6,186 nucleotides of DNA. Source: Escherichia coli. Its GTDB lineage: Bacteria; Pseudomonadota; Gammaproteobacteria; Enterobacterales; Enterobacteriaceae. The stretch lies in the NCBI RefSeq assembly GCF_003334765.1, contig NZ_QOWT01000062.1. One strand, 5' to 3'. Numbering within the stretch: the first letter of the stretch is position 1; every line of letters starts with the position of its first letter. The translations under genes and the position numbers were made by a program. This document shows positions 1-6,186 of the stretch, piece after piece. The notes beneath the pieces are model-generated. The model searched no databases. It was not told the DNA's origin and saw only the letters and a list, made by a program, of their open reading frames with translations.

Positions 1-171
1 CCGGATTATACGGTGAAGGTGAGAAAGTGGTTTTGTGTGATGTGTGACGAAGATTATGAGGGGGAAAAGTGCTGCCCACGCTGCGGTACCGGGGTATACA
101 GCAGGGCGTGGGGGCGGCAGGAGGTGCCGTCGGAAGATGCCAGGGCTGATAATCCGTTACAGAGGCTGTAA
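1..171 (+). CDS. 3' end of an unidentified ORF (5' end outside window) with a C-terminal Cys-rich zinc-ribbon-like motif
   Basis: Frame 1 is open from base 1 to TAA at 169-171. Translation: ...PDYTVKVRKWFCVMCDEDYEGEKCCPRCGTGVYSRAWGRQEVPSEDARADNPLQRL. Cys spacing CxxC-x8-CCxxC resembles a zinc ribbon. The stop overlaps the next ATG (TAATG). Absent from the ORF track because it has no start codon in the window. Family not recognised. Confidence 0.3.
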   Translation, partial: PDYTVKVRKWFCVMCDEDYEGEKCCPRCGTGVYSRAWGRQEVPSEDARADNPLQRL

Positions 172-433: not shown

Positions 434-459
434 GTAAGCGTACAGCCTGAACCGTCTGG
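434..459 (+). repeat. IS66 left terminal inverted repeat (IRL)
   Basis: First 13 bp (434-446) are a perfect inverted match to 2710-2722. Further inward the match is imperfect, so the inner boundary is approximate. Confidence 0.7.
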
Positions 460-504
460 TCAGAATCTGACGAATTAGACAAAGTGGTGTCCACCAAATA
501 AGTA

Positions 505-906
505 GTGGGAACCAAAGTGTCAGATATGCAGAAAAATGTGACTCCCGGCAGGCGAAAAGGCTGCCCTAATTATCCTCCCGAATTTAAACAGCTGCTTGTT
601 GCTGCCTCCTGTGAACCCGGGATATCCATCTCAAAACTTGCTCTTGAAAATGGCATTAACGCCAATCTGTTGTTCAAATGGCGACAACAATGGCGCGAGG
701 GAAAGCTGCTATTACCTTCTTCAGAGAGCCCCCAGCTACTTCCTGTGACTCTCGATGCAACTGCCGAACAGCCAGAATCGCTCGCAGAGGCCCCGGAAAC
801 CCTCAGTATCAGCTGTGAGGTAACGTTCCGGCACGGGACGCTCCGCTTCAATGGCAATGTCAGCGAAAAGCTCCTGACTCTGCTGATACAGGAACTGAAG
901 CGATGA
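505..906 (+). CDS. tnpA: IS66-family accessory protein TnpA (Orf1)
   Basis: ORF track 505..906. Position as first ORF inside the IS66 IRL and coupling to tnpB fit IS66 Orf1. The track start at 505 is a GTG; an in-frame ATG at 526 (MQKNVTPGRRKG...) is an alternative start. No strong Shine-Dalgarno for either. Confidence 0.8.
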   Translation: MGTKVSDMQKNVTPGRRKGCPNYPPEFKQLLVAASCEPGISISKLALENGINANLLFKWRQQWREGKLLLPSSESPQLLPVTLDATAEQPESLAEAPETLSISCEVTFRHGTLRFNGNVSEKLLTLLIQELKR

Positions 907-1250
907 TCCCGTTACCTTCCGGGACCAAAATTTGGCTGGTTGCCGGTATCACCGATATGAGAAATAGCTTCAACGGCCTGGCTGCGAAAGTACAAACGGC
1001 GCTGAAAGACGATCCCATGTCCGGCCATATTTTCATTTTCCGGGGCCGCAGCGGCAGTCAGGTTAAACTGCTGTGGTCCACCGGTGACGGACTGTGCCTC
1101 CTGACCAAACGGCTGGAGCGTGGGCGCTTCGCCTGGCCGTCAGCCCGTGATGGCAAAGTGTTCCTTACGCAGGCGCAGCTGGCGATGCTGCTGGAAGGTA
1201 TCGACTGGCGACAGCCCAAGCGGCTGCTGACCTCCCTGACCATGCTGTAA
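903..1250 (+). CDS. tnpB: IS66-family TnpB (Orf2)
   Basis: ORF track 903..1250 (115 aa). ATGA overlap with the tnpA stop at 903-906 implies translational coupling. Size and sequence (MIPLPSGTKIWLVAGITDMRNSFNGLAAKV...) are typical of IS66 Orf2 as I recall it. Confidence 0.85.
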   Translation: MIPLPSGTKIWLVAGITDMRNSFNGLAAKVQTALKDDPMSGHIFIFRGRSGSQVKLLWSTGDGLCLLTKRLERGRFAWPSARDGKVFLTQAQLAMLLEGIDWRQPKRLLTSLTML

Positions 1251-1278
1251 ATCTCTTTATCCTGGTTGTCACAGAATA

Positions 1279-1298
1279 AGCCCGGTAAAATACGGGCT
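1279..1298 (+). promoter_or_regulatory. hairpin (6-bp stem AGCCCG / CGGGCT, 8-nt loop) ending one base before the tnpC start codon
   Basis: Seen: AGCCCG(1279-1284) GTAAAATA CGGGCT(1293-1298) then T, then ATG at 1300. It occupies the position where a ribosome-binding site would be; no canonical Shine-Dalgarno is visible. A regulatory role is inference. Confidence 0.3.
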
Positions 1299-1299
1299 T

Positions 1300-2685
1300 A
1301 TGAACGACATCTCTTCTGACGACATCTTCCTGCTGAAACAGCGCCTGGCCGAACAGGAAGCGCTGATCCACGCCCTGCAGGAAAAGCTGAGCAACCGGGA
1401 GCGCGAAATAGACCATCTGCAGGCGCAGCTGGATAAACTCCGCCGGATGAACTTCGGCAGTCGTTCCGAAAAAGCCTCCCGCCGTATCGCACAAATGGAA
1501 GCCGATCTGAACCGGCTTCAGAAAGAGAGCGATACGCTGACTGGTAGGGTGTATGACCCGGCAGTACAGCGTCCGTTGCGTCAGACCCGCACCCGTAAGC
1601 CGTTCCCTGAATCACTACCCCGTGACGAAAAGCGACTGTTGCCTGCGGCGCCGTGCTGCCCGAACTGCGGCGGTTCACTGAGCTATCTGGGCGAGGATAC
1701 CGCCGAACAGCTGGAGTTGATGCGTAGCGCCTTCCGGGTTATCCGGACGGTACGGGAAAAACATGCCTGTACTCAGTGCGATGCCATCGTGCAGGCACCT
1801 GCACCTTCGCGGCCCATCGAGCGGGGTATCGCCGGACCGGGGCTGCTGGCCCGCGTGCTGACCTCGAAGTATGCAGAGCACACCCCGCTGTATTGCCAGT
1901 CAGAAATATACGGCCGGCAAGGTGTGGAGCTGAGCCGTTCACTGCTGTCGGGCTGGGTGGATGCATGCTGCCGGCTGCTGTCTCCGCTGGAAGAGGCGCT
2001 TCATGGCTATGTCATGACTGACGGCAAACTCCATGCCGATGATACCCCGGTCCAGGTACTGCTGCCGGGTAATAAGAAGACGAAGACCGGGCGGTTGTGG
2101 GCGTATGTTCGTGATGACCGCAATGCCGGGTCAGCGTTGGCACCTGCAGTGTGGTTCGCTTACAGCCCGGACAGAAAAGGCATCCATCCGCAGACTCATC
2201 TTGCTTGCTTCAGCGGTGTGCTGCAAGCGGATGCGTACGCCGGGTTCAACGAGCTGTATCGCAATGGTGGGATAACGGAAGCTGCCTGCTGGGCTCATGC
2301 CCGCCGAAAGATCCACGATGTGCACGTCCGCATCCCGTCAGCACTGACGGAAGAAGCCCTGGAGCAGATCGGTCAGTTGTACGCCATAGAGGCGGATATA
2401 AGGGGAATGCCGGCAGAGCAGCGGCTTGCTGAACGTCAGCGAAAAACGAAACCGCTGTTGAAATCCCTGGAAAGCTGGTTGCGTGAAAAGATGAAGACCC
2501 TGTTCTTCGGCTCTGGCCATGGTGGTGAGCGGGGAGCGCTACTGTACAGCCTGATCGGGACGTGCAAACTGAATGACGTGGATCCAGAAAGCTACCTTCG
2601 CCATGTGCCTGGCGTCATAGCAGACTGGCCGGTCAACCGGGTCAGCGAACTGCTTCCGTGGCGCATAGCACTGCCAGCTGAATAA
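1300..2685 (+). CDS. tnpC: IS66-family transposase TnpC (Orf3)
   Basis: ORF track 1300..2685 (461 aa), the longest ORF in the element. N-terminal heptad-like, leucine-rich region (LLKQRLAEQEALIHALQEKL...), a CxxC...CxxC zinc-finger motif (CCPNCGG ... CTQCD), and an acidic-residue-rich core consistent with the IS66 transposase. Ends 12 bp before the IRR region. Confidence 0.88.
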   Translation: MNDISSDDIFLLKQRLAEQEALIHALQEKLSNREREIDHLQAQLDKLRRMNFGSRSEKASRRIAQMEADLNRLQKESDTLTGRVYDPAVQRPLRQTRTRKPFPESLPRDEKRLLPAAPCCPNCGGSLSYLGEDTAEQLELMRSAFRVIRTVREKHACTQCDAIVQAPAPSRPIERGIAGPGLLARVLTSKYAEHTPLYCQSEIYGRQGVELSRSLLSGWVDACCRLLSPLEEALHGYVMTDGKLHADDTPVQVLLPGNKKTKTGRLWAYVRDDRNAGSALAPAVWFAYSPDRKGIHPQTHLACFSGVLQADAYAGFNELYRNGGITEAACWAHARRKIHDVHVRIPSALTEEALEQIGQLYAIEADIRGMPAEQRLAERQRKTKPLLKSLESWLREKMKTLFFGSGHGGERGALLYSLIGTCKLNDVDPESYLRHVPGVIADWPVNRVSELLPWRIALPAE

Positions 2686-2696
2686 CACATCCCCGT

Positions 2697-2722
2697 CAAT
2701 ACGGCCCTCGCTGTACGCTTAC
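2697..2722 (-). repeat. IS66 right terminal inverted repeat (IRR)
   Basis: 2710-2722 GCTGTACGCTTAC is the exact reverse complement of 434-446. Inner boundary approximate. Confidence 0.7.
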
Positions 2723-2923
2723 TTTTGTTCGGACTGCTTATGGCCTTTTTCCACTGGTGGCGCAGGAAAGTTAACCGGCTGCCACCATGGGATGACGTGT
2801 AAACCGTGCAGGCATGTTTTCACGTGGTGACGCTTTCATTGGGGGTCTACGCCGGAACCCCAATATTGTTCACATACATGAATTTGAAAAACTAAGCGAT
2901 ACTGCTGTCCGTACCTTATAAAC

Positions 2924-4297
2924 TTATTTCAACGCTTCCGGCAGCGTCACAATCCACAGTTCACTGTCAGACTCCGGTTTCTCCAGTGGCTTCACTCTGA
3001 GGGTCGTTTCAACCTGCTTGTCGTCAAGCGTCAGCTTTCCTTCCGCGTTCACCCGATAATCCTTGAATGTCTTGCCCTCGACCGGATGTTGCATCGCCAC
3101 CTTCACGCCAAAGTCGTTATCGTTCGCCACCGCCAGCGTTTTGCTGTCGATCAGCGCCAACCCTTCAGCCTTCTCCTGCTGCCAGCCCAAGGAGCGCAGA
3201 TCAACAACCTGCGTTTTCTGCGCAAGGGTAATGCCGCGCTGTGACAGGGTTTTCTCATCATCAAACTCCGGATACTCACCCGGCTTGTCGAAGCCTGACA
3301 GGTCGCTCGCCTTATTGAGATCGACCTCGTAAATCAGGTTACGCATTCTGTTGTTTTTATCTCTTCCCTGTTCGATCAGCAGGATGTGCTGGTTATCGAG
3401 CGCCACGATGTCTCCGATTTTAGCGTCGCTGTTTTTGCTGTAGGCCGCGCTGTCGATAGGATAACCGTACATCGCGGTTTTTCCGCTTGCCGGATCGAAG
3501 CTCACCAGACGCGTAAACAGCGCCTTTTTCTTGCTCTTAGTGTCGATATCCAGCGTACTTTGCACGGCGACAATAATACGCCCGTCCGGCATACGGGTGA
3601 GGCCTTCAAAGCCGCGGTTCGCCTGACGCCATTTGAGGATATTTGGCAAACCGCCCGCAATCGCTTTTTCCCCTTCCGCCGCCTGCGGACCGTGGATTGC
3701 CAGGATTTTCCCTTTACTGTCGATGTTAATCAGGAACGGGCCATACTCATCGCACAGCCAGTAACCTCCTTTACCATCCGGAGTGATCCCTTCCGTATCC
3801 AGCCCGCGATTATCCCCCTTCAGTCTATGTAACGTGTCGCTGAAGGCCACTTCATTGGTGGAGCCAATCACGTCGCTTGCCAGCGGCAGACCGTTGATCG
3901 CGCCTTTATCGTCATGCAGAGGACGGGGATCGATGGCCTCCGCTTTGCCGTTTTGTACACGAATCGTCATCAGCAGCGGCGCGAAATCTGGCGTAACGAA
4001 AATTTTAGTTTCGTTTTTCCCCTCTTTCGGTGAATCCGCGTTCGGACCGCGATCGGTAATGGTTGCGAATGTCAGGGCATCGCCCTGTTTACCGGTGAAC
4101 AGCAGGCCAGAACCTATCCCAACCGGAAGGCCGTTCGGGAATGCACTGGCAAATGCGCCGGCATAGTTCACGTGCGTGCCTTCTGGAAAACTGACGACAT
4201 AGCGCTCAGCCGTAGGTTGTGCCGCCAGGGCAGAGAAAGAGAGCGTACAACCGATTAGCACGGGAATAATTTTTCTTTTCATATTGTTAGCATCCAT
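2924..4297 (-). CDS. secreted or lipoprotein-type beta-propeller protein, phytase-like / SdiA-regulated-domain family (function unknown)
   Basis: ORF track 2924..4297 - (457 aa). N-terminus MDANNMKRKIIPVLIGCTLSFSALAAQP has a signal peptide with a lipobox-like LIGC; an alternative start is the internal Met giving 2924..4282. Motifs ANRGFEGLT and AEGLA resemble the GFEGL and AEG(V)A motifs I recall in E. coli YjiK (SdiA-regulated / phytase-like beta-propeller clan). Family assignment is from memory, not a search. Confidence 0.7.
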   Translation of the reverse strand: MDANNMKRKIIPVLIGCTLSFSALAAQPTAERYVVSFPEGTHVNYAGAFASAFPNGLPVGIGSGLLFTGKQGDALTFATITDRGPNADSPKEGKNETKIFVTPDFAPLLMTIRVQNGKAEAIDPRPLHDDKGAINGLPLASDVIGSTNEVAFSDTLHRLKGDNRGLDTEGITPDGKGGYWLCDEYGPFLINIDSKGKILAIHGPQAAEGEKAIAGGLPNILKWRQANRGFEGLTRMPDGRIIVAVQSTLDIDTKSKKKALFTRLVSFDPASGKTAMYGYPIDSAAYSKNSDAKIGDIVALDNQHILLIEQGRDKNNRMRNLIYEVDLNKASDLSGFDKPGEYPEFDDEKTLSQRGITLAQKTQVVDLRSLGWQQEKAEGLALIDSKTLAVANDNDFGVKVAMQHPVEGKTFKDYRVNAEGKLTLDDKQVETTLRVKPLEKPESDSELWIVTLPEALK

Positions 4298-4545: not shown

Positions 4546-4695
4546 TGCACGTGTCAGTATGATGAGCTGACCACACTCACGTGGGTGGACTGGTATAACA
4601 ATCGACGATTGCTGGAAAGGCAGGGCCATATCCCACCGGCAGAAGCAGAAAAAGCTTATTATGCTTCCATCGGAAACGATGATCTGGCAGCCTGA
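4546..4695 (+). pseudogene. C-terminal remnant of an rve/DDE-type (IS3-like) transposase, 5' portion missing
   Basis: Open frame with no start codon translates to CTCQYDELTTLTWVDWYNNRRLLERQGHIPPAEAEKAYYASIGNDDLAA*, stop at 4693-4695. The W-x-x-YNNRR...PAE pattern matches the conserved C-terminal end of integrase-core transposases (IS3 family OrfB). No upstream transposase body is present. Confidence 0.5.
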
Positions 4696-5014
4696 GTTCA
4701 CAGATAAAACACTCTCCAGGAAACCCGGGGCGGTTCAATTGCTGGATAAGATCATAACGATACACCGGGTTAAACAGGTGGTCACTGCTTCACTGAAGCT
4801 GCGTGATTATGATGGTCAGGTAGCAGAAGCTATGCCCATGATACAAAAATGACGAAAGCCGAAATGTCTGAAAGCGTGTGTATTACCTGAAAATATGACC
4901 GGCTCCGGGGTACGTAACCGATTCAACAAAGCCAATCGATATTACAAAACGAGAGGAACTATATATTTCGTTTTCAGATAAGACTCCTTGAGAGATTATC
5001 TTTTATGTAAAATC

Positions 5015-5308
5015 TCAAATATCACCTGATGTAATGTCAATGATAATATTAAGTGCGCTCTGAACAACATCTTTCTTGGTGTGATTAACATCTGACAAAA
5101 AGAACATCAGCTTCTTTATTATGTTCTTGTTGTTTATTATTTCACGCTCACAGAATAAAGCGTTGACTGCCTCTTCTATGACATTTCTCTCGTAAAAAAA
5201 TTGAGAGTTAGCTTCATATAAAATATTGGCCAATTTTTCACCAAAAACCATATTATAATAATCACTGTGCATCTTTCTCCCCCAGGGTTCAGTCAATAAT
5301 TTTACCAT
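5015..5308 (-). CDS. hypothetical protein (97 aa) in an AT-rich segment
   Basis: ORF track 5015..5308 -. Complete ORF with an in-frame stop two codons upstream of the ATG. Codon usage is very AT-rich, in contrast to the IS66 region. No recognisable domain. Confidence 0.4.
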   Translation of the reverse strand: MVKLLTEPWGRKMHSDYYNMVFGEKLANILYEANSQFFYERNVIEEAVNALFCEREIINNKNIIKKLMFFLSDVNHTKKDVVQSALNIIIDITSGDI

Positions 5309-5610
5309 GCCTAATTATGACAGGTGTAACAAGCATATTTTGCTATATAAATAAAATACATAATACTGATTATTGTAAGAACAGGAAGCAGACTAATGGT
5401 TTTTTTTGTGAGCACATTCCTTCTTATGTAGGAAGAGGCTGTATTATATTCAGTCAACTCTTTTTTACTAAAAACATTATCTATGCCATCAAAGTTGCCT
5501 GCTAGCTAATTTTTAGGATATCGCCTTGTCGTGGATTATGCACTCTAAACATGTAGAAGGTATTCATTACAAATACACAGACGGCCATCTTTTGTAAAAT
5601 GGATGCCGTT

Positions 5611-5727
5611 TTAAGTGAGATTCTGATTTTCAAATTGTTCCGGACTGAGACCGCCACACCAACTGTACCATCGCCAGCGATTGTAATCGCACTCGATATA
5701 ATTAAGTAAGTTTGCTGATTTTGCTGT
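5611..5727 (-). pseudogene. C-terminal remnant of an IS3-family transposase (OrfB-like), degraded
   Basis: Minus-strand open frame without a start translates to [38 protein letters not shown], stop at 5611-5613 and upstream stop at 5728-5730. The YIE-x-YNR...[10 protein letters not shown] pattern matches IS3-family OrfB C-termini as I recall them. Only about 30 aa of homology is retained. Confidence 0.5.
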
Positions 5728-6017
5728 TTACTGCGACAGATGTAAAGCTGTGGTGATTCATGCAGACTAAGTTCACGGACTCCGGCAGTAACACCGATGC
5801 ATTCTGCAAGCTTCAGATCTTAACTACGAAATTCATGCGAATGGTGTTTACGTTTTTTTACTGGTTGAAACTGTTTTGTCTTGTGAGTCACCTCTGACTG
5901 AGAGTTTACTCACTTAGCCGCGTGTCCACTATTGCTGGGTAAGATCACAACACTTTAAAATGCCCTATATAGGGTTAACCAGTAATTATCTGTATGATAG
6001 CTTTGAGTTCGGGAGGA

Positions 6018-6040
6018 GGTAATGACTCCAACTTACTGAT
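6018..6040 (-). repeat. IS1 terminal inverted repeat (insB-proximal end)
   Basis: GGTAATGACTCCAACTTACTGAT differs by one base from the IS1 right inverted repeat as I recall it (GGTAATGACTCCAACTTATTGAT). Confidence 0.88.
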
Positions 6041-6186
6041 AGTGTTTTATGTTCAGATAATGCCCGATGACCTTGTCATGCAACTCCACCGATTTTGAGA
6101 ACGACAGTAACTTCCGTCCCAGCCTTGCCAGATGTTGTCTCAGATTCAGATTATGTCGCTCAATGCGCTGAGTGTAACGCTTGCTG
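6033..6186 (-). CDS. insB: IS1 transposase InsB, C-terminal part (5' end outside window)
   Basis: Codon-by-codon translation of the minus strand from the TAA at 6033-6035 reproduces the InsB C-terminal sequence ...[18 protein letters not shown]. Not in the ORF track because there is no Met in the window. Confidence 0.9.

Follow-up and report, generated by a model that had tools for sequence, protein, structure and literature searches.

A common ISEc8 copy in Escherichia coli carries an internal in-frame deletion in its transposase gene and is, in all likelihood, a catalytically dead inherited relic

We analyzed a 6,186-nucleotide stretch of Escherichia coli DNA (contig NZ_QOWT01000062.1 of assembly GCF_003334765.1), referred to here in its whole length as the window. 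It contains a copy of the insertion sequence (IS) ISEc8, of the IS66 family, and we focused on the transposase gene of this copy, tnpC. An intact ISEc8 from E. coli O157:H7 strain 7636 (L002, 1635..4076) was used as the reference. By blastn, the window copy matched this reference in two collinear pieces, the first joining window 434-2503 to L002 1635-3704 with 99.3% identity and the second joining window 2499-2722 to L002 3853-4076 with 98.7% identity. In ISfinder practice, a copy is usually regarded as an isoform when its DNA identity to the named element is at least about 95%, and both common segments lie above that level. The window element was 2289 bp long, compared with 2442 bp for intact ISEc8, and 17 base differences separated it from the O157 copy. 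Both terminal inverted repeats, which start with GTAAGCG, were present and were identical to the left and right ends of the intact L002 copy.

The three genes tnpA, tnpB, and tnpC followed one another on one strand, each scoring above its curated NCBIfam cut-off, with an overlap of 4 bases between tnpA and tnpB (Table 1). TnpA differed from the O157 reference at 3 amino acids (aa). TnpC matched the NCBIfam model for IS66 family transposases (NF033517) with 353 bits against a cut-off of 180, and four Pfam domains (LZ_Tnp_IS66, zf-IS66, DDE_Tnp_IS66, and DDE_Tnp_IS66_C) were found in it. The same locus in another strain (L001) was 99.95% identical to the window across all 6186 bases, and its RefSeq annotation at 5001..6386, "tnpC: IS66 family transposase," has the same start and stop as in the window. 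Judged by sequence identity, gene organization, and ends, the element is a copy of ISEc8.

Table 1. Positions of the features in the window and the basis on which each was assigned
Feature	Position in window	Strand	Basis
ISEc8 (IS66 family) copy with 153-bp internal deletion	434..2722	+	blastn vs L002
Left terminal inverted repeat, perfect 13-bp core GTAAGCGTACAGC, partial matches further inward	434..446	+	Comparison of element ends
tnpA, IS66-like accessory protein, intact, 126 aa from annotated ATG	526..906	+	NCBIfam NF047595, 94 bits; RefSeq annotation
tnpB, IS66-family accessory protein, intact, 115 aa	903..1250	+	NCBIfam NF033819, 119 bits; annotation
tnpC, 51-codon in-frame deletion, 461 aa instead of 512 aa	1300..2685	+	ORF listing, alignment, blastn
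Codon 199, TGC (Cys); family-invariant Arg (CGC)	1894..1896	+	R199 invariant in 102 sequences
Codon for D247, first catalytic Asp, retained	2038..2040	+	100% of 101 representatives; strand beta-1 of RNase H-like fold in model
Codon for D311, second catalytic Asp, retained	2230..2232	+	99% conserved; just after strand 306-309 in model
Codons for C330-W-A-H333, CxxH motif, retained	2287..2298	+	C330 and H333 invariant
Deletion junction, single CCTGT	2499..2503	+	Base-by-base comparison with L002 3700-3704 and 3853-3857
Codon 406, GGC (Gly); Asp (GAT or GAC) in intact copies	2515..2517	+	Comparison with intact copies
Right terminal inverted repeat, reverse complement of GTAAGCGTACAGC	2710..2722	-	Comparison of element ends
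DUF6404-family gene remnant, N-terminus missing, just past IS right end	2725..2802	+	RefSeq annotation of L001 6426..6503
Zinc-ribbon domain protein gene, C-terminal part	1-171		
"Esterase-like activity of phytase family protein" gene, 452 aa as annotated	2924-4282	-	Annotation
IS3 fragments	4564-4695 and 5611-5709		Annotation in L001
IS5/IS1182 fragment	4760-4890		Annotation in L001
YmgB/AriR-family biofilm regulator gene	5015-5272	-	Annotation in L001
IS1F	from 6033		Annotation in L001

The initial annotation had given tnpC a product of 461 aa and had suggested that this may be short for an IS66 TnpC, and both points held. The open reading frame (ORF) begins with ATG, and the closest intact transposases, those of the ISEc8 family, are 512 aa long, which is also their length in the RefSeq annotation; a protein search also recovered 512-aa relatives from Salmonella, Shigella, Serratia, and Klebsiella. 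Across 101 diverse full-length representatives of the family (prefiltered to lengths of 495-580 aa and 33-52% identical to ISEc8 TnpC), the median length was 535 aa. The same annotation had offered two explanations, natural variation in a subfamily and truncation at the N or C terminus, and neither agreed with what we found. The alignment to reference TnpC proteins that it had proposed showed complete termini and a 51-residue internal gap in the DDE domain. Residues 1-400 and 402-461 of the 461-aa protein aligned with residues 1-400 and 453-512 of the 512-aa protein, and in a nine-sequence alignment the match of the window protein to the 512-aa proteins began at Met1 and ran to the final residue, broken only by one 51-column gap block. 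A terminal truncation, whether through a wrong start, a premature stop, or loss of an IS end, would account for the short length taken alone, but the Met start and the ...LPWRIALPAE stop are the same as in the 512-aa protein, Pfam found both the N-terminal LZ domain and the C-terminal DDE_Tnp_IS66_C domain, and both inverted repeats are in place; we consider this explanation practically excluded.

The other proposal, an IS66 subfamily with a functional TnpC of about 460 aa, draws on thousands of 461-aa proteins in the databases (cluster P0002 alone has 4664 member sequences) and on the RefSeq annotation as an ordinary IS66 family transposase. However, those 461-aa entries are one allele, with 99-100% identity and the same junction, and autonomous ISEc8 copies that are 99.3% identical in DNA encode 512 aa. 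Had the length been natural, the closest TnpC proteins should also have been about 460 aa and aligned over their full length, which was not the case for intact ISEc8. Moreover, the deleted block is filled in 101 of the 101 representatives, with a gap fraction of 0.00-0.01 per column, and near-invariant residues are removed with it. A natural length variant is, in our judgment, extremely improbable.

The residues lost, 401-451 of the intact protein, are LSRHSELAKAFAYALNQWPALTYYANDGWVEIDNNIAENALRAVSLGRKNF (LSRHS...DNNIAENALR...GRKNF). The intact element has two copies of CCTGT 153 bp apart, of which the window keeps one, and the two blastn pieces overlap by those 5 bases. Deletion between short direct repeats is a classic signature of replication slippage or illegitimate recombination, and because the deletion joins such repeats, we infer that one of these processes, acting between the CCTGT copies, produced it.

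The deletion leaves TnpC without a complete DDE_Tnp_IS66 catalytic domain. The Pfam model of this domain (PF03050, 284 positions) matched the window protein over positions 1-222 with 259 bits and the intact protein over positions 1-283 with 355 bits, so that the last 61 positions matched by intact TnpC are gone. Likewise, NF033517 (387 positions) matched the window protein over positions 4-294 and the intact protein over positions 4-384, the latter with 459 bits. Among the 101 representatives, 24 family columns were at least 95% conserved, and 4 of these lie within the deleted block: A410, Y413, E438, and N450 were all at least 96% conserved. A further six deleted residues (D433, N434, N435, R442, G447, and R448) were 89-94% conserved. 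Four acidic residues are near-invariant in the family, D247, D311, E364, and E438, and the last of them (98% conserved) falls within the deleted block. The window protein still has both catalytic Asp residues and the CxxH motif (D247, D311, C330, and H333; family conservation of 99-100%), and it also retains the N-terminal coiled coil, the zinc-finger DNA-binding region, and the C-terminal element.

Sequence searches of PDB found no solved structure, and full-text searches of the literature gave no accessible paper with positions for the IS66 DDE residues. We predicted the structure of the intact 512-aa TnpC with AlphaFold from a 102-sequence alignment (mean predicted local distance difference test [pLDDT], 93.4; predicted template modeling score [pTM], 0.82). 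The modeled secondary-structure elements are ordered as in RNase H-like transposases that contain a helical insertion. In the model, a strand at 243-255 bears D247 and is followed by strands at 260-271 and 283-289 and a short helix; D311 lies just after a strand at 306-309, and a strand at 325-328 comes next; the CxxH motif at 330-333 opens a run of helices from 331 to 426; and a helix at 435-447, capped by D433-N-N, bears E438.

The ISCth4 transposase has the order D175, D241, CxxH (C262/H265), a four-helix insertion domain (261-325) between strand and helix, and then E348, and its CxxH motif is of the same kind as that of ISEc8 TnpC (C330/H333) (PMC7780238). This transposase (IS256/Mutator family; PDB 6xg8) shares only 12% sequence identity with TnpC, without a sequence-profile match, and comes from a different IS family with a single ORF, whereas IS66 TnpC has in addition a long N-terminal coiled coil, a zinc finger, and a C-terminal element. 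From the model and this analogy, we infer that E438 most probably completes the D-D-E catalytic triad, in which case the window protein lacks the catalytic Glu together with its DNNxAE helix; by the same analogy, E364 would sit in the second helix of the insertion domain. Even if another Glu were catalytic, the deletion takes out the final insertion-domain helices together with all of the helix that follows, and activity of the 461-aa protein is very unlikely. The concern about activity in the initial annotation is therefore probably justified, though its cause is neither of those proposed but an internal in-frame deletion in the DDE domain. The structural comparison also groups IS66-family TnpC with IS256/Mutator-type transposases, based on the CxxH motif and the helical insertion domain, and predicts concretely that the catalytic Glu of ISEc8 is E438.

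To survey 5426 complete E. coli genomes, we used 49-bp queries built so that intact copies could not seed a match. The query across the deletion junction (window 2477-2525) matched 2398 places (2340 chromosomal and 58 on plasmids) in 2210 of the genomes, or 41%, and in 2221 records. A query across the right end of the IS and its flank matched 2204 places in 2172 genomes, and one across the left end and its flank matched 1846 places in 1760 genomes. This distribution bears on whether a short repeat had been collapsed in sequencing or assembly, as the position of the junction within a 5-bp direct repeat might suggest. The identical junction recurs in all of these independently sequenced genomes, and a 5-bp repeat does not cause assembly collapse; an artefact is next to impossible.

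Some genomes had 2-3 deletion junctions, and we inspected five extra copies, all of which kept at least one flank of the window copy. Three plasmid copies (L003, L004, and L005) kept the right flank, with the DUF6404 remnant and the esterase-like phytase-family gene, were truncated on the left, and lay in segments bounded by IS1 or IS26. A chromosomal copy by a tRNA-Phe island (L006) kept the left flank, and another chromosomal copy (L007) kept both. Movement of the deleted element to an independent target site was seen in none of the five. A piece of the chromosomal island has been captured onto plasmids by other IS elements, and because every inspected copy keeps at least one common flank, the deleted allele is an inherited relic. 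Spread by transposition as the main explanation was rejected, since all five copies share a flank.

The undeleted state of the locus was sought with a chimeric query joining the undeleted 3' part of tnpC to the right flank, and two E. coli O145:H28 genomes had an undeleted ISEc8 at the right flank of the window copy. In the copy of O145:H28 RM12761 (L008, 1890-4317), codon 406 reads GAC, a state midway between the GAT of O157 and the GGC of the window. A different IS66-family element, in inverted orientation, has taken the place of the left 15 bp of this copy, and its tnpC carries a frameshift. With its intermediate codon, the copy fits a deletion that arose in place, and it may preserve the pre-deletion state of the locus.

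The intact L002 copy is flanked on both sides by GAACAACC. No 8-bp target duplication was found at the window copy, where the left flank ends with AAATAGTG and the right flank begins with TTTTGTTC (418-433 compared with 2723-2738), nor was one found at the L006 copy. Since the duplication is missing and a DUF6404 remnant lies just past the right end, a later rearrangement at one end is indicated; this suggests IS-associated deletion or recombination after insertion and not a different family.

These observations also weigh on the idea of a non-autonomous ISEc8 derivative that still transposes with TnpC supplied in trans by intact ISEc8. The deleted copy has both inverted repeats and intact tnpA and tnpB, many carrier genomes have further ISEc8-like copies, with as many as 12 matching places in a single record, and the multiple junctions in some genomes and the 58 plasmid places could be read as mobility. 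However, five of the five extra copies share a flank (the three plasmid copies the right, L006 the left, and L007 both), the plasmid copies are left-truncated within IS1/IS26-bounded segments, and the window copy and L006 lack target duplications. In addition, many transposases act preferentially in cis. Continued transposition in trans seems to us quite unlikely.

Beyond the deletion, two substitutions distinguish the window TnpC. R199C is found in the window, L001, and L007, while the deleted copy L006 still has Arg; given the invariance of this residue, R199C is a probable second inactivating change. D406G, which is D457 in the numbering of the intact protein, lies 12 bases downstream of the junction and is common to the deleted copies L006 and L007. 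Between the tnpC genes of two deleted copies, the window and L006, we counted 10 nonsynonymous and 3 synonymous changes. The numbers are small, but this count is roughly what would be expected under neutral drift and suggests that the protein is not under selection. Selection keeping the ORF open was considered as well and found no support in these few changes.

The 461-aa protein might instead be kept for a role in inhibiting ISEc8 transposition, by binding DNA without catalytic activity, in the manner of truncated-transposase repressors. An ORF that is open in every inspected copy, intact DNA-binding and coiled-coil regions, and an allele present in 41% of complete E. coli genomes all speak for such an inhibitor. 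Against this, purifying selection is not apparent from the 10 nonsynonymous and 3 synonymous changes, the invariant R199 is gone from the window copy as well, carrier genomes still have many ISEc8-like copies, and inheritance of the surrounding island explains the wide distribution. We regard retention as an inhibitor as very improbable. Taken more broadly, there is a slight chance that the dead 461-aa TnpC inhibits incoming ISEc8 in a trans-dominant manner, or that intact ISEc8 mobilizes the element as a non-autonomous passenger.

We thus consider it highly likely that this tnpC is the gene of a defective ISEc8 copy with an internal in-frame deletion, catalytically dead and inherited as a relic. 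Under the mechanism we propose, slippage or illegitimate recombination between the CCTGT pentamers 153 bp apart would have removed 51 codons in frame, and with them the final insertion-domain helices and all of the helix that follows, with its DNNxAE motif. The deletion would have occurred in place, after ISEc8 had inserted at this chromosomal site, an island adjoining the fec iron-citrate genes. The dead copy would then have been inherited and carried along together with its flanks, in some cases onto plasmids as part of IS1/IS26-bounded segments.

Several points speak against this conclusion. In every copy that we inspected, the tnpC ORF has stayed open, and the deleted tnpC carries no pseudogene flag in RefSeq. 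A second near-invariant Glu, E364, is retained and could be the catalytic residue on conservation alone, and no experiment or solved structure is known to settle which Glu is catalytic in an IS66-family TnpC. About 190 places with the deletion junction were not matched by the right-flank query, and with five copies inspected, rare mobilized copies could exist.

What the window holds is a dead mobile element and not a new, short type of transposase; as a routine decayed IS, it has little biological weight. Two things that a live IS66-family element should have, a full DDE domain and a target-site duplication, are missing from it. IS copies with internal deletions are very common, and RefSeq already contains this protein under accessions such as WP_000997960.1. 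In RefSeq, where names come from the Prokaryotic Genome Annotation Pipeline (PGAP), the deleted gene is called "IS66 family transposase," and intact copies are called "IS66-like element ISEc8 family transposase." Because the deleted allele is very common and has no pseudogene flag, IS censuses that count tnpC overcount active ISEc8. The 49-bp sequence across the junction provides a simple marker that tells the dead allele from live copies.

Further features surround the element. The zinc-ribbon gene at the left of the window belongs to a module made up of an inovirus Gp2 family protein and two zinc-ribbon proteins, which is a constant left neighbor of the IS and recurs in the tRNA-Phe-associated island (L006). 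To the right, the esterase-like phytase-family gene is a constant neighbor of the dead IS, plasmids included; its protein had no match in an NCBIfam scan. According to the annotation in L001, window 4564-6186 is a patchwork of IS remnants, which ring a low-GC (guanine-plus-cytosine) stretch of 31-36% GC at about 4800-5600 that holds the YmgB/AriR-family gene. In related genomes, the fec iron-citrate operon lies just beyond the window.

The closest known system is ISEc8 of O157:H7 strain 7636, with which the window copy shares gene order, the 4-base tnpA/tnpB overlap, and terminal inverted repeats; it differs in lacking 153 bp of tnpC and the 8-bp target duplication and in carrying R199C and D406G. 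IS679 and other IS66-family elements have the same three-gene organization and belong to the same family. Han et al. are said to have found in 2001 that all three genes are needed for transposition, and the window element differs from such elements in that its tnpC is damaged. Defective IS copies with internal deletions in general likewise keep their ends, have lost an in-frame segment between short direct repeats, and are passed on vertically at a fixed site, and the window allele is set apart from them only by its high prevalence and its unflagged automatic annotation.
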